64,000 nt of DNA from Psilocybe cubensis (taxonomy: Eukaryota). The first letter of the stretch is position 1. Every line of letters begins with the position of its first letter. Under the pieces are notes generated by a model. It made no database searches, was not told the origin of the DNA, and was given only the letters and a program-made list of their open reading frames with translations. The position numbers were made by a program, and so were the translations under genes. The stretch is from the NCBI GenBank assembly GCA_017499595.2, contig CM039000.1:3224001-3288000 (forward strand). The letters run 5' to 3'. Positions 1 through 21,079 of this stretch are shown here, piece by piece.

Positions 1-1090
1 TTGCGCTGCTCGTCTGTCTCCTCACCCCATCCTCCCTCTTCCAATCGACGAGCAGCCTGTGCTGCTCGTCCTCGGTTTTTCCGCCACCACCACCTCCATC
101 TGACGTCAACGGGCAGCCTGAGCTGCCCGTCTGACGTGTTGCCGTCGCCGCCACCGCCGCCCTTCACTTTGACGAGCAGCCTGTGCTGCTCGTCTTTCTT
201 TTCACCCCACCCTCCCTCTTCCAATCGACGAGCAGCGCAGGCTGCTCGTCCTTGCTTTTTCCGCCACCACCACCTCGATCTAACGTCAACAGGCAGCCTG
301 AGCTGCCCGTCGACGTGTTGCCATCGTCACCGCCGCCGCCGCCCTTCCCTGTTCACCCCACCCTCCCTCTTCCAATTGACGAGCAGCGCAGGCTGCTCGT
401 CCTCGGTTTTTCCGCCACCACCAACTCCTTCTGACGTCAACGGGCAGCCTGAGCTGCCCGTCTGACGTGTTGCCGTCGCCGCCACCGCCGCCCTTCACTG
501 TTCACCCCACCCTCCCTCTTCTAATCGACGAGCAGCCTGTGCTGCTCGTCCTCGGTTTTTCCGCCGCCACCACCTCGATCTAACGTCGACGGGCAGCTCA
601 GGCTGCCTGTCAACGTGTTGCCATCATCACCGCCGCTGCCGCCCTTCCCTGTTCACCCCACCCTCCCTCTTCCAATCGACGAGCTGCGCAGGCTGCTCGT
701 CCTTGCTTTTTCCACCACAACCACCTCCTTCTGACGTCGACGGGCAGTCTGAGCTGCCCGTCTGATGTGTCGCCATCGCCACCCCTCAGTCTGACGAGCA
801 GGTTGCGCTGCTCGTCTGTCTCCTCACCCCATCCTCCCTCTTCCAATCGACGAGCAGCCTGTGCTGCTCGTCCTCGGTTTTTCCGCCGCCACCACCTTGA
901 TCTAACGTCGACGGGCAGCTCAGGCTGCCTGTCGACGTGTTGCCATCGTCACCGCCGCCGCCGCCCTTCCCTGTTCACCCCACCCTCCCTCTTCCAATTG
1001 ACGAGCAGCGCAGGCTGCTCGTCCTCGGTTTTTCCGCCACAACCACCTCCTTCTGACGTCGACGGGCAGTCTGAGCTGCCCATCTGACGT
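1..1090. repeat. GC/CpG-rich tandem array, ~150-180 bp unit, at least 7 copies, each with two short hairpins; runs off the window start
   Basis: The anchor TTCCAATCGACGAGCAGC (with variants) recurs near 39, 219, 370, 520, 670, 841 and 992. Each unit carries GACGAGCAGC-N4-GCTGCTCGTC and ACGGGCAGC-N4-GCTGCCCGT. Confidence 0.93.
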
Positions 1091-1412
1091 GTTGGTTATG
1101 AGGATGGTTAACGTGCTGGATGTCCGTGTTGTTGGTCTGTATTTATCCCCTTCACATTCTTAGATTTCTCAATTGACCACCTTTTCCTGGGCCTGCAGAG
1201 ATAACAGAGAAATACTGCTTGTTATTGTCCTTAGTCCTGCCAACACCACCCTCCTCAATTTGATTATCCGCTCATTTCTGCTTTTGCATTCCCTAATGGT
1301 TAACACTTCCTTGGTGTATTATCTCTTATTTGGACATGGTCACATGATGACATGTGCACTACTCGGGCAATCTGTTGCGATAACGGATCTTTGTTTGTTA
1401 CCACCATCTACC

Positions 1413-4400
1413 ATGTCTTCCTATACTCTTTCAACCTCTGAAATTGCTCTTTTGCTTCGTATATTCAGGCATGGAGCCTTTGCTGAAGATGAAGATTACC
1501 TTGAAGATCTGTTGGTCCGTTTGGAGGCACTCAGCAATCCCTGGGATCTGCCAGAAGATCAGTCCACCTACGTTGTCAACTCTGAGACTCTCCATCATGA
1601 TGTAGACATTGGCCATACTGGGAATCTGGCAGGAACTGAAGTTGTGGGTGAGGATATGGTTGAGGATGAGGATGAGGATAGAGATGAGATTGAGTGGGAG
1701 GATGAGGATGAGGATAGAGATGAGATTGAGTCAGAGGATGAGGATGAGGATGAGGATGGAGAAGAGGATAGAGATCTGAACCAGGAGGTTGTCATGCAAA
1801 AAATGCATGTTGTAGATGGCGGAAAAAGGCTGGCAGTGGCTGGTGGGGATCATGGTAGAGGAGGAGGAGGAGGAGATAAAGGAAAGCATCGTGGCAGAAA
1901 GCCCTGTGTCAGAGGAGGACAAAAGGAACCGCGTCAACAAAACCAGGCTTTGTTGGATGTTGTGGGATTTGAGGATGTGGATAGCAGAGTAGCGGAGAAT
2001 GAAGATGAAGACGATGTTCTGGAAAGGCAGTATGAGATCGCTCAGCAGGAAACAGCAGAAGAAGACAGGGAAACACCGGAAAACCATGTTTTAACAAAAT
2101 CTACTAGGGCTTTGCTCCTAAAGGTCTGCTCTGTCTGCGATGATATAATGGACTCTTCTGGTTCCTTGCCTTCTTTCCAAAGTGTTGTGGCGGATCCTAT
2201 TGGCCTTTTGACCTATCTTTGCAATCCTGTCTATAGTAAATCATATCTTGATGCAATTCTAGGCGACCAATCCCTGAAATCTTTAGCAAACCGTTGCTCA
2301 ATGGCAGAGTGTAATACTCTTGTCAGTAAATTTGTGCAAGTTCTGTCTTTAATGCATTTCAGAACTAAAGTTGAAAGGTATGTATCGGCATTTAATCATC
2401 TAGTAGATTATATACTTATCCAACTTTATTACAGTGAATTCTTACAAAAGAAGAAAACTACTCCTAGCCTTACCCGGAGACGGTTACTTGAAGACTTCTG
2501 GTTGGATGGAAAAGATAAACCTGAACCCAAGTCAAAGAATGCTCTTTCTATGGCCAACAATGTTAGAAAGATGCATGATTGGCTTAAAATGGGGTCGGCA
2601 TTTTGTATCTTAGGAGGAAGCGGTAAGAAATTTTAATTATTCCATATAAATCTCAACTAAATGTTTTTAGGTTCATTGTATCTATTACCTGTGTTGATCT
2701 GTGCAGGGGTCAATGGTGACATTAGAAAGATGCCACTAGACCAATGTATTAGGCTGGGAGCTTTAATAAAATCACCAGATTTGTGTAAGTCAGATAATTG
2801 TACAGATTTGAAATTGTTTCTTATAATTTTATAGCGCTTCCTGGGCAGCTTGTCACCAAGTCTCTTATTCCAGCTATTTCAAAGCTTGGAGAACTTTTTG
2901 ATATTGAATTCACATCCATGTTTTCCCCCGACATGCTCTCTGGCTATCATGCTCAATACACATCTTCGGTTTCTGCACGTAATTTGAAGGAATCTGATAA
3001 AATTTTTGACAATATCAATTTCGAGTAAGTAACTGTTTTATTGTAGGTGAATCTATTTATTCACATTCTATATGTAGGACCTATAGGAGAAAAAGGGACT
3101 GGAATGCCTGGTCTAGCTTTTGTATCAATGATTTACAGAATCTTTCTGGCACTATCAATGATATAGAAGCATATTCATCTTACGCCAAACAACTATCAGG
3201 CCCTACAATCTCAGAGGCTATACCGTCATCACCTACAGTTATATCTCAATCCACGTCTCGAATTTCAACTATATCACCAACTGTGCGCTGTTCTTCTCCA
3301 ATGTCAATTTTAGAAGATATTCCTTTATTGGATGATGACGCTATGTCTGTATCAGATTATAGCTCTCGTTGTCCCTCTCCGCTTCTGGAAGATGAAGACG
3401 CTGCTTTCCCTGGCCATATTATCAATTCCACATATAAATCGGATGCAGACTTGAATGCTAAATTTCCTTTTAGTCGAACAGCATCTAAACAACAGATTTT
3501 TTCTACTACACAAGCGGAGAGGAAAAAAGCAGAAGAAGCACCATCTTTTCTTGATTTCGAGCAGTTCAGAATACAGGTACTAGTTTTTTTCTTTCCTAAG
3601 CCATCTTTACTCATTATTTTACAGTTTAAAAAACACATTACTCGTGCTGGAATAAGAAGAGGCAAGAAATATCTTCTTCTTAGCTCTGATATTTTAAACC
3701 AGTAAGTTTCTTTTTAAATTTACTTTTTTATTTAAAGAAAGATATACTAATGCATACTTTGCTAGGCTACCCTTGCGAATCAATGATTCCAAGGGTGCTA
3801 TGCAGATTATTGTGGATCCAACCATGTCTTCCGATATGCGCTCAAAGTTATGGACAAATTTTAAAGTGGCATTTGGTGAAAGCCTTGTGGAAACAGACAG
3901 CAAATCCCAGGGTGAATCTCATCACTTTACATCATTACATTTTACTTGGTATAACCGCTACAGTACTAAGGTGTCAGGGTTTCTCCAGTTTCCCCTCTTT
4001 ATCTTCACAGAATTATCTTATCCTTTCATTATCTTATCAATTACCTGATTAGATAGTTTATTTCTTTCATCACAGCCTTCTTGCTCCACTTCTTTCTAGT
4101 AAATTCTATATGATTCCTAGTCTTACTCATCCTTTTTCTATATGATGTCACTTTTATTCTTTAACCTTCCTTTATGATGTAATGTAGGGAATATTCTAGA
4201 ATAGCTGTAGAGTATAAATACTGGACTTGTAGGTAGCTGTAGCTTCAGCTTCAATCTCTTAGGATATCCACTATCATTGGTGTGATCTCTTAGAATCATT
4301 GAGTCTCTCTCACTCTTTTATTCTCTCTTTGCTCTCTTACTCTCCCTCTGCTCTCTCTCTCTCTCCCTTGCTTGATCTTTGTTGGTGGCCTTGTCACACT

Positions 4401-7400
4401 GATTATAGTGTTGCCCTGACAGAAGATTGAAGCTCTCTCAAGACAACTCCACCATCTTTCTTTCAACACCAAACTCTTCAACCTCTTCAACCTCTTCAAC
4501 ATCATCACCTCAACCTTCTTCCCCCACTTCCAACCCACCAACCTCTTCATCAACCTCTTCACCAATCTTCTTACCAACCTCTACATCTCCACCAATCTTC
4601 AACATCCTCCTCAAGACCTTTCTTCAAGACCTTTGGCTCATCATCTTTCCTACTCTCTGTTGTGTGCTGTGTGTGAACTTAGTAGATAGGGATACCAACT
4701 GTTGGGGCAGACACAGTCCTACTAGTGTTCTGTTTTTGGTGGTCTAGGAAATATCCAGTAACCCTGTGATCCTAGGTTTAGAGCCCTGAGTGGTGTGACA
4801 ACTGGGTATCCAGTAGATAGATATTTTTTTTAGAATACTTAGTATAGTTTCAAGGGCACTTTTAGTAGATAGCTTCTCCCACACACACATCAGAGAGCCT
4901 ACCTACCTCTACCCATGGACATGGACCCCTCCCAATTGCCTCCCACCACTCCTTCTGTGGAAGAGCTCATGCATCAGGTCCAGCTCCTTACCCAAGAGTT
5001 GAATTTTCTTAGACAGCAGCAGCAGTCATTATCCACTCCACCACACCCTCAGCAACCAGTCAGTCAGTCACCATCACCATCACCACCACCACCACCTGCT
5101 GCTCTAGATATTCATTCTTTCCCTACCCCTCATGTTGTCCCTTCCTGTTCACACTCTGCCATTAAAGTCTCACCTCCAGATCCATTTGATGGTTCTATGG
5201 AGAAGGCAGAAAACTTCCTCAGTCAGCTTAAATTATATTTCTATGGGAAAGGGATTACAGATGACTTTCAGAAAGTTATTTGTGCTCTATCTCATATGAA
5301 AGGAGGTACTGCTGGGAAGTGGGCATATGAGAAGACTAAAGTAATAGACAATGCTCAGTCCCAAGAAGGTCTTTGGGCTGACTTTGTTTATGAATTTAGG
5401 GAAGTGTTTGCAGATCCAGACCCCTCCAACACAGCTAAGCATAAAATGCACATGCTCAAGCAAGGCAGACAGACTGCTGATGAGTATGTTGCTAGCTTCA
5501 GGGCTCTGATCTCAGATACTGGGTATAATGATGCTGCTTTGGTAGACCAATTCAAGGCTGGGCTTAATGAAAATCTCAGGAATGCAGTCTACTATGTTCC
5601 TGACATGCCCAAAACCTTGGATGGATGGATTAAATGGAGTACTAGGCTAGATAGGCAGTGGAGACAGAGTGAGGCCTTTACCAAGTCTCTTTCCTCCTCC
5701 TCTTCTTCTCCCTTCCTTAAAGCCCCACCTCCCAAGGCTGTTCCTAAGCCTACTCCAAATCCTCCAGTCTTTTCCAACAGCAGCTCAAGGACCTTTGGTG
5801 CTCAGGCAAAGCAACCAGATGTAGTTCCCATGGAGGTTGACTCTGGATGGAAGTCAGTTAGGCCAATTGTTTGCTTCAAGTGCAGAAAGCCTGGTCATAA
5901 GGCTGTAAACTGCAGGTCATCAGTTAACATCAATGCTATGACCCATGAAGAACTGGCTGACTACTTTGGGAAATTAATCTTGGAAGGCCAGGAGCAGAAA
6001 GATGAGGAAAAGAAAAATTTTTAGAAGCACCATTGGTGAAAGACATGTCCCAATGGCATAGATTTAATGTACTAGAAAATGAAATTGACAGACTTGATCC
6101 TCAGTCTTCAGATTCTGGTGCAGAAATCATGTCTTCTTCTTCCTCTCTTTCTACCTTCCCTGAAAAGATCTACATCCTCAACCATAATCCTAAAACCTCT
6201 ACCCATTTGTCTGTCATCTTAAAGACAATGGACACAGAGAAAAGGTTATCTGTTGATGCTTTGCTTGATTCTGGAGCTACTGGCCTCTTTCTGCATTCTG
6301 GTTTTGTGAAGTATCATAATCTCAACACAAGGAAACTTCCTAGAGCCATTCCAGTCTATAATGTTGATGGTACCCTCAACAAGAGTGGCTCTATCCATGA
6401 GGAAGTAGACTTAATTATGGTACACAAAAACCATACAGAAAGGGCCACCTTTGCTGTTTGTGACTTGGGAGACAAATCTGCTATCATTGGACATACTTGG
6501 CTTTGGCACCATAATCCAGATGTTGATTGGAAGACAGGGGATGTCCAGTTTATTAGATGTCCCTCTGACTGCCAAATGGAAGCCAAAAGAGCCAGAAGAA
6601 AGAGGCAGAGAATAGCTGCAGTCAAAAGGAGGAAACTCCCTCAATTTGATGAAGAAGAAGAAGATTCTATTGAAGATTCTTCTGATTCTGAGATTGAGCC
6701 TGAGGATAGAATTTTTATTTCATACCTTCATCCTCAGAAGCAGTCTATTAATGCTACTTCTACTATGTCTCAAAGATTAGCAGAAGAGTCTCATCAGCAA
6801 GCTGATTCCCCTAAGAAAACCTTTGAAGAAACTGTTCCTAAGCACTATCATCAGTTTAAAGGTGTTTTTTCAAAGGAATCTTTTGATAGGCTACCAGACA
6901 GAAAGCCTTGGGATCATGCTATTGAGCTGAAACCTGGTTCTGAACCTTACAGATCCAAGATTTATCCTCTTTCTCCCAATGAACAAAAGGAACTTGATGC
7001 CTTTTTAGAGGAAAATCTGAAGTCTGGCAGGATTAGACCCTCCAAGTCACCTATGGCCTCCCCTGTATTCTTTGTCAAGAAGAAGGATGGATCTCTTAGG
7101 CTTGTCCAGGACTATAGGAAACTGAATGAAATGACCATCAAGAACTCCTACCCCCTTCCATTGATTTCTGACATTATCACCAAACTCAGCAAAGCCAAAT
7201 ACTTCACCAAACTTGATGTTAGGTGGGGATTTAACAATGTCAGAATCAAAAAAGGAGATGAATGGAAAGCAGCCTTTAGAACCAATAGAGGACTGTTTGA
7301 ACCATTGGTCATGTTCTTTGGTTTAACCAATAGTCCTGCTACCTTCCAAACTATGATGAATGATATCTTTATTGAGCTCATTGATGGAAATGTTGTCATT

Positions 7401-10400
7401 GTCTACATGGATGACATTTTAATTTTCACTGAGACTCTTGATCATCATAGAGAGGTAGTCAAGCAAGTTCTGCAAATCTTAGAACAGAACAAACTCTACC
7501 TTAAAGCAGAGAAATGTGAATTTGAAAAGAAAAAGATTGAATATCTTGGACTAATCATTTCACAAGGCAGGATTGAGATGGATCCTGTCAAGGTAGAGGG
7601 AGTTTCTAAATGGCCTGAACCTGAAAATGTCAAGGATGTCCAATCATTCTTGGGATTTGTTAATTTTTATAGAAGGTTCATAGAGGATTTTGCAGACATT
7701 GCTAAGCCCCTTCATGAATTGACAAAGAAAGGAACAGTCTGGAGATGGAGTCTTAGACAGCAGGAAGCCTTTGACCAGTTAAAGAAGAAAGTCACTTCTT
7801 CACCTGTCTTGATTTTCCCTGATGATAACAAGCCATATAAAGTTGAAGCAGACAGTTCAGATTATGCTACTGGGGCTGTTTTATCTCAGGAAGGATCAGA
7901 TGGGAAATGGCATCCTGTAGCCTTTATGTCTAAGAGTCTATCTGAAGTAGAAAGGAATTATGAGATCCATGACAAAGAGATGCTGGCTATTATCAGAGCA
8001 CTAGATGAATGGAGACATTATCTTGAAGGAACCCAACATTCCTTTGAGATTTGGACAGACCACAAAAACTTAGAGTACTTTATGGTTGCCCAAAAGCTCA
8101 GCAGAAGGCAAGCCAGATGGTCACTCTTCCTGTCCAGATTTGATTTTACTCTTCATCATAGGCCTGGTAAAAGATCTCTTAAGCCAGATGCTTTGTCTAG
8201 GAGACCAGATCATAAAAAGGGAGAGAATGATAACCAAAATGTAGTTCTTCTCAAACCTTCCTACTTTAAAATCCAGGCTCTCAAGCAGGGTCATGCTACC
8301 ATTACTGGTGCAGAAAATGATCTTCTTAAGAAGATTAGAGAAGCTAAGGAGATGGATGAAAAGGTGGTCAAGGCAGTTCAGGAGCTCAAGAAATCTTCTA
8401 CCAAGAAGATTGAAGGACAGGAATGGTCAGAAGAACAAGGCCTTATTCTCTACAGGGGGAAGGTGTATGTTCCCAAGGACAAAGATCTTAGAAGAAAGAT
8501 TGTGGAACTGCACCATGATGCCTTCATTGCTGGACATCCAGGGAAATGGAAGACAATTGAGCTAGTCTCTAGGAATTATTGGTGGCCAGGAATGTCACAT
8601 TTTATTGCAGCTTATACCAGAGGTTGTGATAGATGCAACAGAACCAAAACCTTTCCAGCCAAACCTCTTGGCCTTTTAATTCCTACTGAGATTCCCTCTG
8701 ATGTCTGGCAATGCATCTCTGTGGACTTTATTATGGGGTTACCAGAATGTCAAGGGTATAATGCCATTATGGTGGTTGTGGATAGACTTAGTAAAATGAT
8801 CCACATTATCCCTACTACAGATGAAGTCACTTCTGAAGGGACAGCCAGACTATACAGAGATTATGTCTGGAAACACCATGGCTTACCCATTAAAATTCTG
8901 TGTGATAGAGGTCCACAGTTTGTCTCAAGGTTTATGAAAGAACTCAACTCAATACTTGGTATCCAGACAGCCTCATCTACAGCCTACCATCCCCAAACTG
9001 ATGGTCAGACTGAAAGAGTTAACCAAGAAATTGAGCAGTATCTTAGACTCTTTATAAACCATAGACAAGATGATTGGGTTGAATGGTTAGCTCTAGCTGA
9101 ATTCTCTTATAACAATAGAGTTCAGGCTTCAACCAGGCAGACACCATTCATGCTCAATAATGGCAGACATCCCAGAATGGGCACTGAACCCCTTAGAGAT
9201 AGTAAAATGGACACTGTGGATACCTTTGTGAAAAATATGGAAGAAGCCAGAAAAGAAGCAGAGTCTGCACTTAGAAAAGCTGCTGATGATATGGCTAAAT
9301 TCTATAATAGACACAGAGGTACTCCAACTCAGTACAAAGTTGGGGATTTGGTATGGTTGGATGGCAAGGACCTCAAAACTGATAGGCCCTCCAAGAAATT
9401 GGATGATAAAAGATATGGGCCTTACAAAATTACCAAAGTTATTAGCCCTAATGCCTATGAGCTTAAGCTGCCATCTACCATGAAAATCCATCCAGTGTTT
9501 AATGTGGTTAAACTTCTACCTTATCACCCAGATATTGTAGAAAGAAAGCCTCCTTCTAGACCACCTCCTGTCATTCAAGGAGAAAATCCTGAGTGGGAAG
9601 TTGAATTTATCAAGGACAGCAGACTTTTTAGAAACAAACTTCAATATTTGGTCAAGTGGAAGAACTATCCTAATGAAGAATGCACTTGGGAGCCTGCAGA
9701 GCATTTGAAAAATGCTTCTAAGGCTATCAAGGACTTCCATGCCAAACATCCTTCAGCACCTAGAAGGATTTCTGCTGTGACCTTTGATAGACTTTCTTTC
9801 ACTCCTATTATTAACTTTACTGAACCTCCTCCTCTTCTTAAACCCTCTAAACTAACCCATCCATGTGCACATTGTGGAAAATGTGCCTTAGAGAGGGGGT
9901 GATGTCAGGGTTTCTCCAGTTTCCCCTCTTTATCTTCACAGAATTATCTTATCCTTTCATTATCTTATCAATTACCTGATTAGATAGTTTATTTCTTTCA
10001 TCACAGCCTTCTTGCTCCACTTCTTTCTAGTAAATTCTATATGATTCCTAGTCTTACTCATCCTTTTTCTATATGATGTCACTTTTATTCTTTAACCTTC
10101 CTTTATGATGTAATGTAGGGAATATTCTAGAATAGCTGTAGAGTATAAATACTGGACTTGTAGGTAGCTGTAGCTTCAGCTTCAATCTCTTAGGATATCC
10201 ACTATCATTGGTGTGATCTCTTAGAATCATTGAGTCTCTCTCACTCTTTTATTCTCTCTTTGCTCTCTTACTCTCCCTCTGCTCTCTCTCTCTCTCCCTT
10301 GCTTGATCTTTGTTGGTGGCCTTGTCACACTGATTATAGTGTTGCCCTGACATAAGGTCAGTTTTTAAATCCATATACTTATTCTCTTCCTAATATATTT

Positions 10401-11065
10401 TTTTTAGTTTATTCCTCCTGAAGGCATGTCAGAGGAACAAGCTAAGACTATATATCCTCCTTACTATAGAAGAGAGGGTAAAAAGATCAAGACAAATTCA
10501 TGCACTATAACTCCTCGGGCATCAGCAGAATATCACCGCTATCTTGGTATTCATAATTTGTTGGATAATATTCTAAAAGATGTACTGATTTGGCAAGCTT
10601 TGCGTGTACGTTTTTATTCATATCTTGATCCAACTTATTGCTCATATGTTTTAGCTGGAACAATATCTTCCTAGAGAGTATGAGAAGATAAGGCGATTTG
10701 CAGACCGCCTACCTGGCCAAGACCGTTCATCAGCTTATCCCTTTCCAGGATTTGTTGTTAATATCAACAATGCAACTCTCATCCACCGCGATTGGCATGA
10801 TGATATATTGTGCATCATTATTGTTTTGGGTGATTGTATAGGAGGACACTTGGTCATCTATGAACTTGGATTGGTTCTTGCGCTAAAACATGGAGATATG
10901 GTAATATTCAGATCTTCAAAATTGACTCATTTCAATATGCATTTTTCTGGTCTTCGGGGGTCTTTGGTTTTCCACAGTGATGCTGCTGGGAAGATATGGT
11001 TAGAAAACCAGAATGGATGGTCTGATAATGTATATTTCTTTGGCGATGATGATGTTGTAGCATAA
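1413..11065 (+). CDS. TET/JBP-family 2-oxoglutarate/Fe(II) DNA dioxygenase with a long acidic/helical N-terminus; 9 exons, LTR retrotransposon inserted at the donor of intron 7
   Basis: Exons at about 1413-2377, 2435-2622, 2671-2784, 2835-3024, 3078-3576, 3625-3701, 3766-3970, 10408-10605 and 10655-11065 join in frame across GT-AG introns. The last exon reads GFVVNINNATLIHRDWHD...GGHLVIYELGLVLALKHGDMVIFRSSKLTHFNMHFSGLRGSLVFH, with HxD at 10784-10792, distal His at 10928 and 2OG-binding Arg at 10955. Confidence 0.85.
3972..4421 (+). repeat. 5' LTR (450 bp)
   Basis: TG...CA ends with an 8-bp terminal inverted repeat, TATAAATA at 4213-4220, and no difference seen from 9903-10352. Confidence 0.97.
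4424..4434 (+). promoter_or_regulatory. Primer-binding site, self-priming type
   Basis: AGATTGAAGCT, just after the 5' LTR, is the exact reverse complement of AGCTTCAATCT at 4247-4257, ~26 nt downstream of the LTR TATA box. There is no TGG tRNA-type PBS. Confidence 0.8.
4915..6024 (+). CDS. gag: Gag polyprotein (retrotransposon capsid plus CCHC zinc knuckle)
   Basis: 369-aa ORF with PDPFDG, LKQGRQTADEYVASF...LVDQFKAGLN, VPMEVD and CFKCRKPGHKAVNC. Confidence 0.95.
   Translation: MDMDPSQLPPTTPSVEELMHQVQLLTQELNFLRQQQQSLSTPPHPQQPVSQSPSPSPPPPPAALDIHSFPTPHVVPSCSHSAIKVSPPDPFDGSMEKAENFLSQLKLYFYGKGITDDFQKVICALSHMKGGTAGKWAYEKTKVIDNAQSQEGLWADFVYEFREVFADPDPSNTAKHKMHMLKQGRQTADEYVASFRALISDTGYNDAALVDQFKAGLNENLRNAVYYVPDMPKTLDGWIKWSTRLDRQWRQSEAFTKSLSSSSSSPFLKAPPPKAVPKPTPNPPVFSNSSSRTFGAQAKQPDVVPMEVDSGWKSVRPIVCFKCRKPGHKAVNCRSSVNINAMTHEELADYFGKLILEGQEQKDEEKKNF
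6015..6021 (+). promoter_or_regulatory. -1 ribosomal frameshift slippery heptamer A AAT TTT joining gag to pol
   Basis: An X XXY YYZ heptamer sits in the gag frame directly before the gag TAG. The -1 frame (LEAPLVKDM...) is open into pol. Confidence 0.75.
6021..9902 (+). CDS. pol: Pol polyprotein: aspartic protease, reverse transcriptase, RNase H, integrase, chromodomain
   Basis: LLDSGAT (PR); LVQDYRKLN and YMDDILI (RT); EADSSDYATGAVL and WTDHKNL (RH); HHD...GHPG...CDRC, SVDF, CDRGPQF, TERVNQ and GPY (IN); WEVEFI...QYLVKWKNYPNEECTWEP (chromodomain). Confidence 0.97.
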   Translation, partial: LEAPLVKDMSQWHRFNVLENEIDRLDPQSSDSGAEIMSSSSSLSTFPEKIYILNHNPKTSTHLSVILKTMDTEKRLSVDALLDSGATGLFLHSGFVKYHNLNTRKLPRAIPVYNVDGTLNKSGSIHEEVDLIMVHKNHTERATFAVCDLGDKSAIIGHTWLWHHNPDVDWKTGDVQFIRCPSDCQMEAKRARRKRQRIAAVKRRKLPQFDEEEEDSIEDSSDSEIEPEDRIFISYLHPQKQSINATSTMSQRLAEESHQQADSPKKTFEETVPKHYHQFKGVFSKESFDRLPDRKPWDHAIELKPGSEPYRSKIYPLSPNEQKELDAFLEENLKSGRIRPSKSPMASPVFFVKKKDGSLRLVQDYRKLNEMTIKNSYPLPLISDIITKLSKAKYFTKLDVRWGFNNVRIKKGDEWKAAFRTNRGLFEPLVMFFGLTNSPATFQTMMNDIFIELIDGNVVIVYMDDILIFTETLDHHREVVKQVLQILEQNKLYLKAEKCEFEKKKIEYLGLIISQGRIEMDPVKVEGVSKWPEPENVKDVQSFLGFVNFYRRFIEDFADIAKPLHELTKKGTVWRWSLRQQEAFDQLKKKVTSSPVLIFPDDNKPYKVEADSSDYATGAVLSQEGSDGKWHPVAFMSKSLSEVERNYEIHDKEMLAIIRALDEWRHYLEGTQHSFEIWTDHKNLEYFMVAQKLSRRQARWSLFLSRFDFTLHHRPGKRSLKPDALSRRPDHKKGENDNQNVVLLKPSYFKIQALKQGHATITGAENDLLKKIREAKEMDEKVVKAVQELKKSSTKKIEGQEWSEEQGLILYRGKVYVPKDKDLRRKIVELHHDAFIAGHPGKWKTIELVSRNYWWPGMSHFIAAYTRGCDRCNRTKTFPAKPLGLLIPTEIPSDVWQCISVDFIMGLPECQGYNAIMVVVDRLSKMIHIIPTTDEVTSEGTARLYRDYVWKHHGLPIKILCDRGPQFVSRFMKELNSILGIQTASSTAYHPQTDGQTERVNQEIEQYLRLFINHRQDDWVEWLALAEFSYNNRVQASTRQTPFMLNNGRHPRMGTEPLRDSKMDTVDTFVKNMEEARKEAESALRKAADDMAKFYNRHRGTPTQYKVGDLVWLDGKDLKTDRPSKKLDDKRYGPYKITKVISPNAYELKLPSTMKIHPVFNVVKLLPYHPDIVERKPPSRPPPVIQGENPEWEVEFIKDSRLFRNKLQYLVKWKNYPNEECTWEPAEHLKNASKAIKDFHAKHPSAPRRISAVTFDRLSFTPIINFTEPPPLLKPSKLTHPCAHCGKCALERG
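9890..9899 (+). promoter_or_regulatory. Polypurine tract
   Basis: AGAGAGGGGG lies 3 nt before the 3' LTR. Confidence 0.85.
9903..10352 (+). repeat. 3' LTR (450 bp)
   Basis: Direct copy of 3972-4421, followed by the TSD TAAGG. Confidence 0.97.
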
Positions 11066-11202
11066 TTACTATTCAGATGTTTGTACTGCCACCTGTCGGA
11101 TATTTAATTTCAAAGTCCGTTCACATGATGTCAACTTCGTCCGACACGTCTAAACTTGTATTCTACTTTTTTGGCATCCGTTCTCCAGGCTATCTTGTCA
11201 TA

Positions 11203-13281
11203 ATGCAAACCCGTTCTTTAAAAACAACAAGTTCAGCACCAGCCAAGCCTAAGGCTAAGCCCAAATCCAAGTCTACAAGTACATCAACAACGTCAAAAAA
11301 AGCTTCTTAGAAAAGCAAAGCATCGCAAGACGTTTCTAGTGGACAAAAAGGTAAGTATTGATTCTATCAATGTTCTGTTGTTAATATCTTGTTATTATAC
11401 TGTCAGATTCATCTATAACGTCAAATGAGCTAGCTATATTCCGGAAGGTCCAAGAACAAATGAAGTCTCAGCGTAAGCGTGCTCAAGACGCTGTAAATGA
11501 AGGTAGGTAAATTCCATTTATAAAATCCTACATTTATGCCATTTTCTTGTAGATATTCAAGACAGAAATATGCAGCTTCTTGCACAGCAGCAAGAAAAAG
11601 AAGATCATCCTAGTGAAGAGGAAGCTCGCCGTCCTGCCAAACGTACTCGCACTAGAACAACTCAACTTAGCGATGATGAGCAAGAACTAGCAAATTCATT
11701 AACACCTTTGTCTACTACACGACGCCAAACCACTATACGTCCATCTCCAAGCATAGAATCCGGAAATGAAGAAGACAACAATGATGATGATGATGATGAC
11801 GATGCAAAAGAATCCGCAATTCAACAGGAGAGAGACGGCAGTGATGAAGGAGATGCCAAAATGGACATTGATAATGGCAATATTGGAAATGAAGAAATGG
11901 TTCAGAGCAATAGAAGCTTTGACAACAATGGCGTACGTTTTACAACTTATTGATATCTATTACTCATGATTATTTCTAGATTGAGATCATTGATATTGAG
12001 GATGATTCTCGATCAGTAATATCTAAAATATCCGGCACATCTCGCTCAGCTAGCTCTGAGACTCCAGTACGATTTGCAAAGTCAGCCAAGGTTACTGAAA
12101 GTGATTTTCCTCCTTCCGTTTGGGAACTTGCTGTTGCCGCAAAGTCACACATCCGGTATGCCCTAATCAAAATTTCTCCCTTTCCTTATGCTACTCGGGC
12201 AGAGCGCGTAGAATTCATCTGGGATGTTATCAAAGCGACCTCCAAATTGAATAATAAAGCATTGGTTTCTGCATTCAAGCAAGCCGCTAATAACGAAGCT
12301 ATTAAGAAGAATCTTATTGCCTTTGTACGTATATACAAATCAACTCATTATATATTTGCTAATGTTTATTATAGACAATGTATGGACGGACTGCTTTAAT
12401 CAGCAATATCATTGGCAAGGCTAGAGACAAAGTTAAAGGATTCTACTCTTTAGGAGGCAATGCTACTGGCAATCATGACGATGGCTCTGTTGCTGAGGAT
12501 GTGAAATGGTTATTAGATCAGTCTCATTATGTTTATGGTGGCCTTGACGTCAAGGTATGACTTGATTTCTACCATATCAACTTACTAATTTAAATGCTTT
12601 AGAAACGAACTTATGACGCAAATAAACCTTTTCTTCATCCTCTTATTATTGAGCTTATTGAAGCACAATGGTTTCCATCATCGTATCGTTCAAAATCTGA
12701 TGTAGAAACAGCTACAAACATTATGAAAGACAAAATTATTCCATCGTCTGTTATTCTCTTAGTAGCCACAGCGGTAAGCTATATCATTCTTTATTCATAC
12801 TTATACTTAATTTTGATTTAGATTGAACATGCACTCAGAGAATGGTCTAATGGTCACAAGGCTTTTAATATTAACTTCGCCGAAGAAGGTTCTCGTCAAT
12901 GGTTATATTTTTTTCTGCATAATATTTATTATATTCTAAAATATTTTCATCTAGCTATCAACGTTTAGAAAGCAATTGGAAGACCATTGAGAAGAATGCT
13001 TATAAATGGTCTGTTTTCTGTCGTAAAAAGATTTTTAATGCAATTGCGTCAGTATTTTTTTTAATACCTTAATTCATACTAAGTATACTTTTGCTTTTCA
13101 TAGCGCAAACTACCAAGTTATAGGAGCCGCTCCTAGTGATATGTTAGCTCTTGATTTTGCTGCTTTAGATAAAATAGCCGAAGAAGATGGAAATGATGAA
13201 CCAGCACAAAGAGAAGATGAACACAATGGCAATAGTGGCAATGTTGGTAGTAATGGTAATAGTGGTGAAGTCGACAACTAA
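11203..13281 (+). pseudogene. Multi-exon DUF6532-like protein (basidiomycete, transposon-associated) with an in-frame TAG early in exon 1
   Basis: The spliced reading gives ...YGRTALISNIIGKARDKVKGFY...VKWLLDQSHYVYG...KPFLHPLIIELIEAQWF...VILLVATAIEHALREWSNG..., which I recognise as DUF6532-like. There is a stop at 11308-11310; a downstream ATG at 11460 could rescue translation. Confidence 0.65.
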
Positions 13282-13687
13282 TGGGCCAGATATGCTTATA
13301 GTTAATAAAGGGCAGCTATTTTAGATAAATCCTTCTTTAGAATTCTTTATTTGCGTATATTCATTTTAATCTGTTTTTAATTGCTTCATATATATATACT
13401 GCATTTGTAGCAAACAGGAGCGCTTTCAGCAATTACTTTTTTTATATATGATGTTTTAATACTTATAAAACATAGTATTTTAATTAGTAGATTGTGTTAA
13501 AGTAGCTTTATACTATATATAAAAGCTCAAACTGTATTTGATTGTTTTACAAAGCATTAAATCATTTGTATATGTGTTTTAGCCTTTATTTAAGTATATT
13601 CAAATATTCTAAAGATATTTATTATTGCTTTAAAGACAAAAATTATAATTTTAAAATATCTAAGTTTTGCAAAGAGGCATTGATGTT

Positions 13688-13747
13688 GCTTTGGAATGCT
13701 TTGGAATGCTTTGGTACGCTTTGGAATGCTTTGGAACACTTTGGGAA
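13688..13747. repeat. 10-bp tandem repeat GCTTTGGAAT x6 (possible subterminal repeat)
   Basis: Seen directly in the AT-rich tail after the DUF6532-like gene. Confidence 0.85.
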
Positions 13748-13951
13748 TATTTCAATTGCTTTATAATGCTTTAAGCTGTTTTAAGCTATTTTAAAATACT
13801 TTTGAATATTTTTAGCACTCCATTCTAAATCCACCTTGCTTTAGAGACTTCTAGATCCCTTTTTGTCTTTAGTGTCTTTAGTCTACCTAGGTGTACCTAA
13901 AGCAACTTAAATATACCTAGGGACAAAACCTATTTTCCTGATGTTTCTACA

Positions 13952-14324
13952 GGATATCTTGTGCACTGTCAACGCGCCACATGACTGCGCACAATATAAC
14001 TGCACAGCGAGTGGTGTTCGATATGTGTATCAAGAGCGCAAGGCAACAACCATCAAAACTCCAGTCATTGAACATAAAGTCAACCCTGACCACCGTGTTC
14101 TTAATATGGGGCAGATGCGCAATTCTATCCATCTGCAGCAATTTTGCGTTCCTGCACGACCGGTTCCTAACAAATTGGAAACAATACACAAAGCTGTTTC
14201 CCATACTATTGATACACGAAAGGCGGCAGCAACCAGCGGTCGTGCCACACGAGGAAGGGGGAAAGCGGCTCATAAACTTAAAGGGCAAGGCCACAGTCAA
14301 CATCGTGACATAGGCCAAGATTGA
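13952..14324 (+). pseudogene. 3' exon fragment of a basidiomycete transposase-like gene (possibly CACTA/EnSpm-related)
   Basis: After the acceptor TTTCTACAG it reads DILCTVNAPHDCAQYNC...VYQERKATT...IEH...VLNMGQMR, resembling C-termini of fungal transposase-like proteins. No upstream exons are adjacent. Confidence 0.5.
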
Positions 14325-15320
14325 CAGGCTAGTATTCCTAGTGTGTCTCCCCTTTCGCCACTTCCATCTGCACAGACTGCTGCTTCATCATTGCCACCAC
14401 CCTCGCCAGTGGTTTCCCAGGCCCAGCCATATCCTTACTTCTTTTGGCCATCAGCACCCTCTAATACAGCTTATCCACATTACAATCGACAACCACAGCA
14501 GTACCAAGGGTATACGATGCCATACCCTCAGCATTGGGTTCCCAATTCATCATTGTCGTGGGTTCCAATGCCCCATCTGCCGCCGCCAACTCAACACCCA
14601 GATGGTCGTTAAAGTCATGTGACTGGGGCTACCATTCTGTTGCTTTGCTTCTCTTTCTCTCACCACAGCTTGCCACCCCGCGACCCACTCTCCACTCTCT
14701 GCATACGCACCTCCGGCCCCCCGCAACCCACTCTCCCCTCTCTGCATATGCACCTCCGGCCTGTCCAGTTGTCAAGGTTGGAGTTTCACGGTGAGTTTTC
14801 AAGATTGTTTGAGGTCGTTTGCAAAGTTGATCAACCCCGCCCCGCTTGTCCTAGACCCTTGCTCGTCAAGGTAAGCCCAGCAGCAACACACTCCGTCACC
14901 ATTGATACTGATGGGACTTGTGCAGCGCTACTCGACATGGCCATGCGTGAGCGCTGCAACTCACTACTGCACAGAATGGTGATACGGCGAGTGATTCGGC
15001 AGCGGGCAGAGAGAGAGGACGCGGATTGAAGCATCTCCACTCTCTGCATACACACCTCCGGCCAACGACCCCTCTCCACTCTCTGCATACGCGCTGCCGG
15101 CCAATGACCCACGCAGGTCTTACTAAGAATGCTGCCACATTCACAACGTGTCTGGCAAACCTGGCACTCTTGCAGGTTGTGTCCCATCCCGTACCGGCCC
15201 CTTCACCGAGAATGCTGCTAACTGGGGTTGCAATGAATATCCATGGAAGGGGAGATATGTAAGGTGCACTTGTTTACTTTTCATACCAGTTTCTTTACTA
15301 AACAGACAATAGCATGCACC

Positions 15321-15450
15321 TGCCACTTGTCGACTACGCGCCGCGGCTGCCACTACTCCATCTGCTGCCACTTATCGACTACGCGCCGCGGCTGCCACTA
15401 CTCCATCTGCCCGCCTGCCACTATCTGACTATGCGCCGCGGCTGCCACTC
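15321..15450. repeat. ~46-bp tandem repeat x3 (TGCCACTT..GACTACGCGCCGCGGCTGCCACTACTCCATC)
   Basis: Seen directly. Confidence 0.85.
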
Positions 15451-16126
15451 CTTATATCAACAATGACACACGGAGGTCCTGAATGCCATCGCTATTTGAC
15501 ACACACTCAACACACTTGACAGCCTAGGGTGCAGCAGCCGGACTTCAACAACGTCCCCAGCAATCTGTGCAATGGCATCGCGTCCCCATTGCCTTGTGTC
15601 TTGTTCCTTCGCGTTGTGTCATTAGTCAATTACATTGTATTGTTTTAGTGCAGGATAGCTAGATAATTCAATGTTAATTAAGGATTACATAAAAGTGATA
15701 TCAGTATTGAGAAAAGTGCATAGCTAGAGGTTACTGCTAAGCCCTCTTCAGCACAACTTCCAGGTTTTTTAGCAGTTGGGGATGGTGTTGACAACTTAAG
15801 ATCCTCATCCGAGTCTGTCAATGATGTCAATTGTTTGAACTCCAATTTGGTCATGGGAAATTTGGGGGGCGAATCTCTTTTCTGTTGTTCACTCCCTTCC
15901 GCATTATACATATTGATTTTGGCCCTTCCCCTGAGCTCAAACGTGTTCGAACGCGCTCGGACGCGTTACTGACGCGTTGCGCGCCGTTTATTTGAAATCA
16001 ACAAGAAAATGTTGCACAGCTTTGGTCGGAACGGATAAAACCAAGAACTGCAGAGTGAGTGCAAATCCCGCTTTTGTTCAACATCTTCCTGCTCAGAACA
16101 CTGCTTTGTCAAGTTCAGCTCATCCA

Positions 16127-17748
16127 ATGTCAGCCGGATCAAACGCTTCCCCACCCTTTGAGCATCCAGTACAACCTGATAGTGTTGAACTATTTATTGA
16201 TACTCTCAGCCTTCAATTCGGGCTTACACCAGAACGCCACAATGATCTACACCTTTTATACTCTGTAAGAGACATTTCTTTTGAGTTATTGAAGTTCTCT
16301 GATTGGTTATTGCACTACTTCAGCTTGGAGCTGAGCAACAGATTCCGTTAGATTGCGCTTCTGCTCTGACTGGGATATTTGCACTTGCGTGTCAATTTTC
16401 CGTTGAACAGAAGATTCTCACCGCATTTGCATCAGTCAATGGTAGCCTGGGAGGACTAGATCTAAAGGGAACATTTGAAGAGCTACAAATCCGCCTGCAG
16501 AAAACATGGGAAATTACAAAAAATCAGAAGGTGCGTTTCATGTCTCAGTTTAAGGTGAACTTCGGTTCATTTTCTCTCTAGGAGGACCTTCGACACTTAT
16601 CGCAGCAGCATATATACATGCCCAAGTGCACATGCTTCAAGCTTCTCCATGTTGACGTTGAGGTGAGTATACATCTCCATAATCATTCATGTATGGACTC
16701 GGACTTACTCTATCCTTTATTATCTAGGCTGAAGTTAGCAAAGATGCCTCAAAGTATTCGATGCAAAATATATTCGGCAAACCCGCTCATGAGCTATGCT
16801 GGAGGTCAGAAGCAAAACGGGTGGCATCAAGCGTTCGGAATGCATTCCGACAAGATGTGAGTCTTATGTTCAGCAATGATGTGTACTAAATATTAAAAAT
16901 ACATATTGCTTTAGATTCGTGACAGCTTGTTTGGTCGCAAACGCTGCAGCCTCAAAAGGTTTACACAAGCATGTGCAGACAAATATCATCATGGGACACT
17001 GTTAGGCAGTCAAGAAGTCGAATATCAGATACGAAATGTTCTTTTGGTAAGTCTATTACGATATCAATTTACTGTCTATTTCTTATGTCCACTAAACAAC
17101 AACAATAGAGAAGATTTGCATACGAAAATAAAGAGCTTCTTGGCAAGGAAGAAAGCTTTCAAGATGACACCGAAGACAATGACTCTCACGCAGTAATGGG
17201 TAACAAGCGTCAAAAGGGTCTAAAAACGGTGGGTCGTATTCCGAACGGGGATGACTTTTGGGCCCAAGCAGATGATTGGTTTGAGAAGGGCTTTGAGCTG
17301 CGGGGTCAGAGCTTTACGACGGATGCATGGAAAGAGTATGTTTACAGTTTTGTACTTGAGTGTGTGTTTAATGTGCTAATTCATGTTTTTTACCTATAGA
17401 TATATTGATGAATCAAGGTCTCTCGATGACGAATGGCATAAAAATAATGGACGCAGCAGACAGCAGATCACCGACAGCAGTTCCACATCCGACCAATTTC
17501 CAGAGTTTACGCAAAGATCAGTGCACAATCGTTCTTCATCCCCTGACTTTACAACACAAACTTTACCACTGAATTTAACGTCCTCCTCACTTCCAACTCA
17601 ATCCAGTACATTTCTGGAACAGTCTTCATCACGGCATACACATAGCTCTATGGCCCGAACCTCTATAGTACAACAATATCTTTATAATAATTGTGGTCCG
17701 GATTATCAGGTCAGAGGTAATTGCAGCAGCGGTAGTAGTGGGGTGTAA
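16127..17748 (+). CDS. Multi-exon hypothetical protein, probably a transposon accessory gene
   Basis: Successive ORF pieces join across GT-AG introns (...LQKTWEITKNQK|EDLR...ASSVRNAFRQD|IRDSL...GRIPNGDDFWAQADDWF...AWKE|YIDES...). It lies on the same strand, downstream of the transposase-like fragment. Confidence 0.6.
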
Positions 17749-19484
17749 AGTTCTTATTCATTCTACTCTTTCTATATAATCATGTAATTAATGTAACAAA
17801 AAGCTTGCAACTTGTGAATGGGACAACCGACATTTGGATGGTGAATGTGGCAGTGCTAATCGTTTGTAATTGTTTGCTTAACCTTTGTGTGCATTTTGCA
17901 ACCGGGAAATGCTCTCTCCTCAATCCACCACTGCTGTTCCATGCCGTTTTTTCATTTTGTTTGTTTCTGCAGCTCCTGAATCTGTTCAGGCATGCATTTG
18001 GCATGCAAGCTGATTGTTGTGATTGCCCCTAGTTATGCAATTTCCCGTATGTGGGAACCATGTTCAATGGCACAATGGTCGCTTGAGCTTTTTCATGTAT
18101 ATTGTCCATGATTCTGCTCCGCTAACTGATACAGGGTCATGCGTAGATTCAATCAGTAATCGCTGTAAGCTGCTCCTCATTGTTTGTGTCTTATCTTGGC
18201 TAACTGGTCTTTTGGAAACAGATGGACAAGTTTAAGTGGCAGTAAGTCTATTCGCAATACTATGCTCCTATGCTTTTCAATACTGATTTAAGATACAGAC
18301 TTTTTGCTTGCATTGGGTGAACATCGTTGCTGCTCCAAGTCTTTCAATCTTTCTCAAGTTTTCCGGAGTAGAGAAGAACAGTCGAGATGGGCAGGAAGGA
18401 TTGTTGGGTGCAAGTAGAAGTACCATGGTGCGTATGATTGATCATTATTGCCTGCTTGTATGTGTACGTTGTAGATACCTCATTGAATGAATATTTATGT
18501 GTAAAAAAACTTCTGATCCTTCAAAATCGATGGAATCCGATAAGATTTGACTAATGTTGAGCGAATCTCAAAGCAAATCTACGTAAGAATATTCTCTACA
18601 GATTTTAAAATATTCTTAATTCATGGAAAATAACAAACTACTTGAGCTGAAGCCACTCAAGAATTGGTTATAATGATTTAGACCTGCCTTAAGGTACGTC
18701 GAGGCAATATGATTAGCCCCCTTGTTTTTTGAGAATTTCTTAAATCATATTAACCATCACCAATCAAAATCCGGGTCAAGATATTGTTCGTACCGAGGGT
18801 CACCTGTGTAACATGTAGTTATTCATCTGGTAGTAGGGATTATTTCTGGTACGCGCTATCTCTTTTTTCTTCAAGTAAATATTAGCACGCTTAGTCTAAA
18901 TAATGGAATATTAGTGGTCGAAGTCTTTATGAACAACACTGCAAGGCTTCAAGATAACAAAGCTTGAAAACAAAAGATAAAGCCCTAAACAAGGAGTCTT
19001 TTCAGCATATACCTAAATGACAGTTCCATGATTCTTTTATAATACTGAGCTAGATGAAATTTCCCCCAATATACTAGTTGCATAGATGCTCAGTGGCGGT
19101 CTCGGGGCCTGAAGGGTTAGAATAATAGAAAAACTGTACACGTGAACTACGCAAGAACTACGGCACGATGTCAAGTGCCGGCTTGGACGCCACTGTACAA
19201 GAACCTCCTTACCCGGTGTAGACACGAGGCAGGAATTGGGGCTAAAACGTCGCTCTGAAAGCGAAGACCAGCATATACAGTTGACTTTTTCATAATGCAT
19301 ACCGGTTGTAACGGCCAAAAGCTTAGTCTCATTCCCATCTGTTATAGGGCACGATCTCCCCTCCTGCAAGAGGCCCGGGACTAATAGGCGGAGATCAAAG
19401 TCGGAGTCAAAAATTCTGCAAAATCTGATCGGGAAGATGTGCCCTATAACATCTGGTGCAATTGCATCAGTAAAGATGCGGACA

Positions 19485-20016
19485 TGTCACGCCGTGCTCA
19501 CGCATCGACTTGACGCCGTCTAAGTCAGGATTTTTGGTCCAAGGACAACAGTTCTCTTTGTTTGAATATTATATCTTGCCATATCTCTAATCTCAAGTAT
19601 GTAAAGTGCCCAGTTGCGGCCGAAAATGTTATAAAATTTCCGTTGGAAGGCTCTAGCCCGTGTACAGGTACTAACCTCAAGTGTTAAGTGTGAAGATCTA
19701 ATATACTTAGGCTGAATGGGACAGTAGAATTAGGGTAGAAAGCAAAGGTTTGATGTTACAGCATTACCAGGCCGGGTACTCACTCTGCGAGTTCACACTC
19801 CTTGAAATTGTCAGTTAGGAGTGGATGCACCAAGACATCAAAATAAGGCTAGCTTAATTGGATTGCACTGAAATCAAATAATATTGTATTTATTGTCATC
19901 CAGTAAGTCTAAGAGTGATTATTGGTGAGTAAATTGTCTATTAACAAGGAGAACGGGGAGTATGAGGAGCATTGATTGAGCGATAAAAAGAGTGTGAGAG
20001 TGTGACTGATGTGACA
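19485..20016. mobile_element. Possible solo LTR (532 bp)
   Basis: Begins TGTCAC and ends GTGACA, and splits a perfect 39-bp palindrome. Only a 3-bp ACA duplication flanks it. Confidence 0.45.
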
Positions 20017-20156
20017 ACAGGGGCTGTCCGCATCTTTACTGATGCAATTGCACCAGATGTTATGGAGAGCGATTTGCAACGGTTTTCGTCAGAATTTTTG
20101 ACTCCGCTTTCATTCTCCGCCGGAGCTCTCCCGTTGTCTTCTCCCATATCACCTCG

Positions 20157-20490
20157 AGCATTTGTTAGCTGCCTTTGGGTCAGCGCTTCAAGCACTTGTT
20201 AGCTGCCTTTGGGTCGGCGCTTTGAGCATTTGTGAGCTGCCTTTGGGTCAGCGTTTCGAGCATTTGTGAGCTGCCTTCGGGTTGGCAATGCGAGCATACT
20301 CCAGATCTCCCAACATTCACTAGCTGCCTTTGGATCGGCGCATCGAGCACACGAACACACAAAGCTGCCTTTGGGTCGGCAATTCGAGCATACAAAGCTG
20401 CCTTTGGGTCGGCGAATCGAGCACACGAAGTCACCTTCGGGTCGGCGCATCAAGCACATGAAGCTACCTTTTGGGTTGGTGCATCAAACA
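20157..20490. repeat. 33-34 bp minisatellite x9 (AGCTGCCTTTGGGTCGGCG...GAGCA)
   Basis: Unit starts at 20167, 20201, 20235, 20269, 20322, 20363, 20396, 20429 and 20462. Confidence 0.9.
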
Positions 20491-21079
20491 TACTAAACTG
20501 CCTACCGACTGACAAGTTATGGGGATTTTGTATGCATGTGGCCCTACCTGAGGTGGTCCCCGCACGGGGGAGCTGGCTTCATGATGACCAGTCAGGCTCA
20601 TCAGGCCTGATACGCTCACACATGGGCTCACTCCTATGCTATGGCTTGTTCTTACTTTATTACATGTCGTTTCTGGGACACACAACCTGCCATCTATAGC
20701 GCGCAGCCTGCTTTGATGCCTGCTGCACACCACGACCGACACGCTATCCCCTACCCTCCAACTGTCTGAAGCGGAACTTGGGCGGAGCGCCTTGTGGGTG
20801 AGACAGTAAAGCTGAGACAACAAATCAGCACCGCCACCCATGTCAAACCTTGTCTGTGCGCCCGCGGGACACTCATTAGAGAGTTTCTGGGAAGGTGGCT
20901 GAGAGTGCAATAGGCCCTGTGACGCCCGAGAGTTCCTATGACTCTGACGCTACCATGACCTTGTCCAACGAAGACCCTTTGCAACCCGGAGAACTTAATT
21001 CAGCTGGCGCTCTTGCTCCCCATCCTCTGCCGCCTGCAGACGGGAGCGGCCGCTCAGATTCTTCTTCATGTGGACCGTC

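Follow-up and report, generated by a model that had tools for sequence, protein, structure and literature searches.

The Psilocybe cubensis genome assembly contains a locus that raises two questions: whether a gene for a putative DNA-modifying dioxygenase is intact, and whether this gene and its neighbor are carried by a transposon. The window analyzed here is a stretch of 64,000 nt (contig CM039000.1, positions 3,224,001-3,288,000, forward strand), and all coordinates are positions in it. Near its beginning lies a gene of the TET/JBP family of 2-oxoglutarate (2OG)/Fe(II) dioxygenases followed by a gene encoding a DUF6532 protein. The original prediction, made from the DNA letters, described the first as an intact gene of nine exons and both as transposon-borne epigenetic machinery. 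Here we show the anatomy of the TET/JBP gene, its family assignment, the insertion of a Ty3/Gypsy chromovirus into it and the absence of this insertion from the other runs examined. The low-copy fungal TET/JBP gene, split by the chromovirus, and its DUF6532 neighbor, bearing a premature TAG codon, most probably represent a strain-specific loss-of-function allele.

A chromovirus splits the TET/JBP gene

The exon model of the TET/JBP gene was built by hand, and the GT..AG borders and the frame were verified. The gene runs from an ATG at 1413 to a stop at 11063-11065 in eight GT..AG-bounded exons comprising 967 codons in frame (Table 1). The previously proposed exons do read in frame to the stop, but their number had to be reduced from nine to eight: an extra intron after ...HRYL was rejected because homologues align uninterrupted through that stretch. 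Six of the introns measure 48-64 nt, and intron 6 (3971-10407) has 6,437 nt.

This long intron contains a complete retrotransposon. The list of stop-to-stop open reading frames (ORFs) in 1-16000 included two, of 383 and 1,298 aa, between the fragments of the N-terminal part and the ORF with the HxD motif (10655-11065). According to Pfam, the first is a Ty3 capsid/gag with a CCHC knuckle and the second a pol with protease, reverse transcriptase, RNase H, integrase, SH3 and chromodomain. When the sequence was searched for repeats, a pair in direct orientation emerged at 3972 and 9903. A script comparison showed that these long terminal repeats (LTRs) are identical at 450 of 450 positions (0 mismatches), have TG...CA ends and are flanked by TAAGG on both sides. 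The element thus presents the paired LTRs, the 5-bp target-site duplication (TSD), the gag, the pol with protease, reverse transcriptase, RNase H and integrase in this order, and the C-terminal chromodomain of a Ty3/Gypsy chromovirus. It shares all of these, as well as the CCHC motif of gag and the purine tract, with other fungal chromoviruses, and nothing unusual was seen in it.

Removal of the element and of one TAAGG restores a 51-nt intron, GTCAGT...TTTTAG, and therefore the element entered exactly at the exon 6 donor, which the insertion altered from AAG/GTCAGT to AAG/GTGTCA. The description of the gene as intact does not hold, as it is split in this assembly by a 6.4-kb retrotransposon that had gone unmentioned.

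Comparison with homologues indicates that the exons on both sides of the element once formed one gene, not two. The window was searched by tblastn with the 40 family representatives that reach 560 aa. Of these, 13 matched exon 6 as well as the last exon, several of the exon 6 matches stopping at its end (3970), and 16 matched both sides of the element. One homologue, P0005 (1,088 aa), is colinear with the window from 2067 to 11038. The family alignment places the ...WYNRY motif that closes exon 6 next to the start of exon 7 within a single conserved domain, and exactly at this point two homologues (P0004 and P0017) present odd insertions that resemble a read-through intron.

The insertion has also shaped the public annotation. 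The NCBI P. cubensis protein JR316_0003886 (P0001, 693 aa) is the N-terminal part of the TET/JBP gene, and its model ends inside the 5' LTR (...SKSQGNILE). In the region 3908-4200 this model departs prematurely from exon 6, using a GT at 3912, and splices to an AG at about 4187 in the 5' LTR, where it finds its stop. The annotation is therefore already, unknowingly, that of a TET-LTR chimera.

The insertion is private to this assembly among the runs examined

A run search using 1400-3970 as the query returned DNA runs from several studies, and four of them were compared over 1300-13400. X5, X6 and X7 were available as contigs and X11 as raw reads; X5 and X6 carry the same species label as the window and come from two other studies, and X7 carries another species label. 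In all four runs, position 3966 is joined to 10353, skipping 6,386 nt. The joint is covered by one contig each in X5, X6 and X7, with at least 255 letters per side, and by 11 raw reads with 8 start sites in X11. Because these are DNA runs, the joined form is the empty site and not spliced RNA. The chromovirus insertion is private to this assembly among the runs examined.

Read depth in X11 was ~1,400-1,500 inside the element against 13-21 on the flanks, which points to a Gypsy family of ~80 copies (order of magnitude) and to a TET-DUF6532 unit of low copy number. The chromovirus is intact, young and a member of a high-copy family. The X11 reads also contain internal deletion variants of this family, for example with joints from 6750 to 8138 and from 9762 to 10134. 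In addition, nearly all X11 reads differ at more than 20 sites from the inserted copy, which would therefore belong to a minority subtype of the ~80-copy family.

Predicted effect of the insertion

The intact Gypsy chromovirus, which lies in the sense orientation at the donor of intron 6 and between the two halves of the TET domain, has lengthened a 51-nt intron to 6,437 nt. Sense-oriented LTR insertions can cause transcripts to terminate or to be mis-spliced in the LTR. We propose that transcription from the TET promoter would yield RNAs that end or are mis-spliced within the 5' LTR, and the resulting product would lack the catalytic core. The private TAG in the DUF6532 gene would add to the insertion, and both genes of the pair would be non-functional in this strain.

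Several points weigh against this proposal. The GT donor survives at the junction and the 3' half of the original intron is intact, and some full-length mRNA is possible. Two possible RNA runs contained next to none of the sampled words, and no listed run was recorded as RNA. A Met further downstream could serve as the start of the DUF6532 protein. With regard to copy number, the uncalibrated flank depth supports 'low copy' but not 'single copy'. The filled allele is known from the assembly and from the NCBI model, which may share that assembly. Finally, contigs prove presence only, and a low-frequency filled allele in X5-X7 would escape notice.

The gene belongs to a divergent branch of the TET/JBP family

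A phmmer search with the last exon against 1.84 billion cluster representatives yielded 694 proteins at E<=1e-3, of which 31 reached E<=1e-30. A large share of the 694 measure 800-1,100 aa and match at their extreme C-terminus. The 150 family representatives used in this work are probably all fungal. The HxD...H...R motif that had been noticed in the last exon is indeed present, and its residues fall in columns that are fully or almost fully conserved in two family alignments. Both His are invariant and the Asp and Arg at least 90% conserved in an alignment of 60 sequences, and the Asp of HRD is invariant in one of 47. From its position, Arg932 would be the 2OG ligand.

The Pfam Tet_JBP profile (PF12851) gave 24.8 bits for the last exon alone, against a curated cut-off of 34.9, the domain being split over three exons. 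The same domain was found in 34 of the 51 long homologues (E<=0.01 or E<=0.001), six of the 51 exceeding the curated cut-off. As the last exon scores below the cut-off, membership in the family rests on the homologues and on the folds. A profile of 38 family sequences matched only human TET2 in the PDB (E 0.006), aligning the PFSG...HRD segments, and at E<=1 it did not find CcTet there.

Structure comparisons gave a consistent answer. The AlphaFold (AF2) model of the homologue P0071, which is 45% identical to the last exon of the window, was obtained from the 60-sequence alignment with a pLDDT (predicted local distance difference test) of 89.5 and a pTM (predicted template modeling score) of 0.86. 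Foldseek ranks 1-26 for this model were all CcTet, NgTet1, TET2 or CMD1, and VIA-align returned Z values of 18.7, 17.5, 15.9 and 13.6 for CcTet, NgTet1, TET2 and CMD1, respectively, versus 11.1 for ALKBH3, the next fold. When the last exon of the window was itself folded with an alignment (pLDDT 82.1), Foldseek ranks 1-21 were CcTet, NgTet1 and CMD1. The beta-helix is therefore nearer to the solved TET/JBP enzymes than to other 2OG oxygenases, in agreement with the assignment to TET/JBP rather than to another 2OG oxygenase family. The expectation that such searches would recover TET/JBP was borne out by the top-ranked folds.

The structure that matches best is that of CcTet from Coprinopsis cinerea (PDB 7vpn, 7w5p, 8jkk), likewise an agaric protein, with which the HxD...H metal site is shared. 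For P0071 the Foldseek E value was 1.5e-9, with 265 residues aligned by VIA-align at an rmsd (root-mean-square deviation) of 3.9, and for the last exon of the window the Foldseek E value was 3.5e-5, although identity in the structural alignments is only 11-23%. For CcTet and the 'AG type', section 3.4 of Kojima (2025; PMC12730594) singles out Gly331 (His+5) and Asp337 (His+11). In an ungapped count that starts at the first His, the gene described here has Asp at +5 (at least 90% conserved) and Ile at +11, and its family therefore seems not to be of the CcTet-like 'AG type'. Human TET2, with the alignment at profile level mentioned above, and Naegleria NgTet1 are likewise fold matches. In contrast to these two, the protein has neither a Cys-rich domain nor CXXC, and a helical module (aa ~381-550) precedes its catalytic domain.

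On the basis of homologues and modeled folds, we would call the product of this gene a putative DNA-base dioxygenase of a divergent agaric branch of TET/JBP. By analogy with CcTet, its predicted substrate would be 5-methylcytosine (5mC) and possibly N6-methyladenine (6mA). An Atlas search with P0005 gave weak leads only, with scores of 0.83.

The original prediction also considered the long N-terminus uncharacterized and saw in its acidic tract a possible targeting part. This tract is encoded by a 36-nt tandem repeat (Tandem Repeats Finder: period 36, 2.5 copies, 96% matches) in a lineage-specific far N-terminus that has almost no relatives, and a targeting role for it is not supported. The relatives of the first ~380 residues are the gene's own NCBI model and a weak match in P0005, and when aa 223-403 were compared with longer proteins in a word-indexed search, only P0001 was returned. 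The module at aa ~381-550 is shared within the family: a local phmmer search with the spliced protein found it in 19 of the 150 representatives. The matching part of P0071 (residues 2-132) is modeled by AF2 as a confident helical bundle, with a block pLDDT of 86-96.

A DUF6532 gene follows in tandem

The gene downstream of TET/JBP was modeled with nine exons and ends at 13281. The Pfam DUF6532 profile (PF20149, cut-off 24) scored 31.2 bits in exon 6 (profile positions 106-162) and 22 bits in exon 5 (60-103), which places the protein in this family. The spliced protein also matches the DUF6532 parts of the homologues P0147 (E 6.6e-13) and P0109 (E 2.2e-8). Exon 4 gave no relatives at E<=1e-3 among longer proteins, the length class searched. 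At position 11308 the T of the window is a C in all four runs (X5, X6, X7 and X11), so that codon 36 is CAG there and TAG in the window.

The pairing of the two genes, which had been proposed for this locus, is corroborated by other members of the family. The TET domain is followed by 200 residues or more in five representatives (P0076, P0109, P0134, P0141 and P0147). Among these, P0147 and P0109 score 121 and 105.9 bits for DUF6532, well over the cut-off, and P0134 matches the DUF6532 protein of the window at E 4.6e-4. In P0147, P0109 and P0134 the TET domain comes first and DUF6532 second, as on the shared strand of the window. These fused proteins are probably merged models of neighboring genes, and the TET-then-DUF6532 tandem would thus be recurrent. 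A complex prediction between the TET and DUF6532 parts of P0147 scored 0.00 in both runs, which is no evidence either way. In a full-text literature search, DUF6532 was mentioned by a single paper (PMC8955403), and there outside any TET context in the text returned.

Is the pair transposon-borne?

TET genes on Kyakuja, Zisupton and Plavaka elements are described for Agaricomycetes in the part of Kojima (2025; PMC12730594) that deals with these transposons. In that part, TET-carrying transposons are said to encode no extra base-modification protein such as glycosyltransferases. The locus resembles them in that a TET/JBP gene from an agaric, a member of a large and expanded family, lies beside transposon debris, but differs in that no transposase, termini or TSD of such an element were found and in its low copy number. 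No domain of the Kyakuja/Dileera/Zisupton (KDZ) or Plavaka type was detected by Pfam in the stop-to-stop ORFs of at least 70 aa in 13300-24300, nor in 42 of the 103 ORFs of at least 110 aa in 13000-64000. Inverted repeats were absent from 1-24000, and the flanks 1-1412 and 13282-24000 showed no similarity at word size 9. The flank depth in X11 is ~80-fold under that of the retroelement. The scans hence give the transposon-borne claim no support, and the flanks are low-copy. Two considerations temper this result. Only 1.4 kb upstream of the gene lies in the window, so an upstream transposase is possible. Moreover, Kyakuja elements are described without terminal inverted repeats in the same part of Kojima (2025; PMC12730594), and their ends would therefore be unrecognizable from a single copy.

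Downstream of the DUF6532 gene, at a distance of 666 bp and on the same strand, we found a remnant of P0152 (JR316_0004928), a P. cubensis protein of 1,281 aa encoded elsewhere. P0152 is possibly a Plavaka-like transposase: it has no Plavaka match in Pfam, and 22 of its 30 Atlas look-alike clusters are in sets carrying PF18759 Plavaka (a lead only). A low-stringency tblastn with P0152 found no further pieces in the window, and a P0152-like stretch was absent from all 150 TET representatives.

The TET gene also differs between runs in its coding sequence. In X5 and X6, a C>T change at 3259 converts TET codon 566 from CGA to TGA. Over 1770-3966 the X5 contig shows 14 differences from the window, of which ten are private to X5/X6, all of them C:G>T:A (seven missense, one nonsense and two silent; four at CpG). 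X5 and X6 agree in all of their differences and possibly represent a single lineage. The TGA and the transitions suggest that this gene is also decaying independently there, and methylation may be the driver. In this small sample the TET gene seems dispensable and possibly subject to mutation of the methylation type.

It is possible, though we hold it only tentatively, that TET-DUF6532 is old, immobile Plavaka-like cargo whose transposase has been cut down to 221 codons, with decay as a methylated repeat and the Gypsy element as one of several lesions. The 95% identity of the remnant to the C-terminus of P0152, the CGA>TGA change it carries, the Atlas lead to Plavaka, the TGA and the ten private transitions of X5/X6, and the derivation of the TAG of the window from CAG would all fit this history. 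The same is true of the rise of DUF6532 counts with KDZ and Plavaka counts in some Ganoderma genomes, according to the part of PMC8955403 that reports them. However, P0152 itself has no Pfam match to Plavaka, the searches for element ends were negative, none of the TET representatives carries a P0152-like stretch, and the remnant may be unrelated debris of a repeat-rich region. Furthermore, only four of the ten private transitions lie at CpG, and the single lineage that X5 and X6 may form would lessen their weight.

A broader version of this history appears rather doubtful to us, namely that the TET clade and a DUF6532 gene always following it on the same strand form a fixed two-gene module, formerly Plavaka-like cargo, which is being destroyed independently in Psilocybe strains, through the Gypsy insertion in this one and through C>T nonsense changes in others.

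We consider it improbable that the TET gene is intact and expressed, with the long gap spliced out, and that the pair is KDZ/Plavaka cargo. All exons are open and in frame, the catalytic residues are kept, a GT donor remains at 3971, TET genes do occur on Kyakuja, Zisupton and Plavaka elements (Kojima 2025; PMC12730594, in the part cited above), and the possibly Plavaka-like remnant lies close downstream. Against this, the 6,437-nt intron is ~100 times as long as the other six and holds a sense-oriented element with its own LTR signals, the scans of the window gave neither a transposase domain nor inverted repeats or shared flank sequence, the flank depth is ~80-fold below that of a true repeat, and in X7, which carries another species label, the gene occupies the same place and lacks the retroelement.

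That the retrotransposon is an assembly artefact, a repeat misplaced into an intact gene, is extremely unlikely: an ~80-copy family invites misassembly and X1-X4, possible source runs, lay outside the comparison, but the element is complete, has TG...CA LTRs and is bordered by a perfect 5-bp duplication, something that no misjoin would produce, and removing the element with one TAAGG gives the exact sequence of four other runs.

Surroundings of the pair

Directly upstream of the TET gene, a GC-rich minisatellite occupies 1-1120 and runs off the start of the window. Its units are of ~151 and 322 nt with 74-89% matches, and all its phases are open because of base composition. Short tandem arrays with 43-, 39-, 45- and 34-nt units are located in a GC-rich stretch downstream of the P0152 remnant, at 14676-15449 and 20154-20476; these may be ordinary minisatellites or else the subterminal repeats of an old element. 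On the minus strand, 35498-39291 carries two large ORFs that combine a CHAT protease-like domain with TPR repeats (TPR-S, TPR_10 and TPR_12), an NLR-like architecture. Ordinary host genes were identified by Pfam at 24359-26267 (-; DUF4139/DUF4140), 32469-34232 (-; mitochondrial ribosomal Mrp51), 42867-44909 (+; nucleotide-sugar transporter), 51459-52509 (-; AsqO-like/Diels-Alderase-like) and 61013-63494 (+; Utp21/WDR36), and the region is therefore not purely repeat DNA.

Table 1. Coordinates of the TET/JBP gene, the inserted chromovirus, the DUF6532 gene and the downstream remnant.
Feature	Position	Strand	Evidence or remark
TET/JBP exons 1-6 (aa 1-765)	1413-2622, 2671-2784, 2835-3024, 3078-3576, 3625-3701, 3766-3970	+	Junctions, frame, P0001, colinear P0005
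Acidic tract, EDEDEDRDEIE twice, residues 84-106	1662-1751	+	36-nt tandem repeat
Conserved helical module, aa ~381-550, including the WLKMGSAFC... stretch	2553-3213 (exons 1-4)	+	Local phmmer
Target-site duplication TAAGG, left copy	3967-3971	.	Exon 6/intron 6 boundary inside (AAG/G)
Complete Ty3/Gypsy chromovirus, 6,381 bp, same orientation as the TET gene	3972-10352	+	Pfam, LTRs, TSD
5' LTR, TG...CA, 450 bp	3972-4421	+	Identity to 3' LTR
gag (Ty3 capsid, retrotransposon gag, CCHC knuckle)	4873-6024	+	Pfam; no internal stop
pol (protease, reverse transcriptase, RNase H, integrase, SH3, chromodomain)	6006-9902	+	Pfam; no internal stop; frame one base back from gag
3' LTR	9903-10352	+	Purine tract ...AGAGAGGGGG just before
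Target-site duplication TAAGG, right copy	10353-10357	.	Last G opens the original 51-nt intron (10357-10407)
TET/JBP exon 7 (aa 766-831)	10408-10605	+	Alignment of homologues P0005, P0013, P0141; junctions
TET/JBP exon 8 (aa 832-967 and stop), double-stranded beta-helix core	10655-11065	+	Pfam, homologues, fold
Catalytic residues HRD; second His; Arg	10784-10792; 10928-10930; 10955-10957	+	H875-R-D877; H923; R932
DUF6532 gene exons 1-5	11203-11350, 11407-11502, 11553-11932, 11980-12324, 12375-12554	+	Nine-exon model
In-frame TAG, codon 36 of DUF6532 gene	11308-11310	+	CAG in other runs
DUF6532 gene exons 6-9	12603-12773, 12822-12901, 12955-13047, 13104-13281	+	Nine-exon model
Remnant of the last 221 codons of P0152, 663 bp and own stop	13947-14612	+	95% identity; in-frame TGA 14322-14324 (CGA>TGA)

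Implications

The locus is best described as a known enzyme family hit by an ordinary, very neat retrotransposon insertion, and we favor its interpretation as a strain-specific loss-of-function allele. The gene model is corrected accordingly: what appeared to be an intact 'epigenetic' gene of nine exons is a TET gene halved by a recently active retrotransposon. The identical LTRs and a site that is polymorphic between samples indicate a recent insertion of a high-copy Gypsy family, and such a family, being both high-copy and recently inserting, must therefore be regarded as an active source of variation among strains of this mushroom.

With respect to the TET/JBP family, strains with the insertion, with the empty site and with the nonsense codon constitute natural material for studying the effect of one TET paralogue on 5mC and 5-hydroxymethylcytosine (5hmC). 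The recurrent order of TET and then DUF6532 provides a first functional lead for the DUF6532 domain. If the two genes do form a fixed module, natural strains would give matched 'on' and 'off' alleles with which to follow the effect of a mushroom TET on the methylome.

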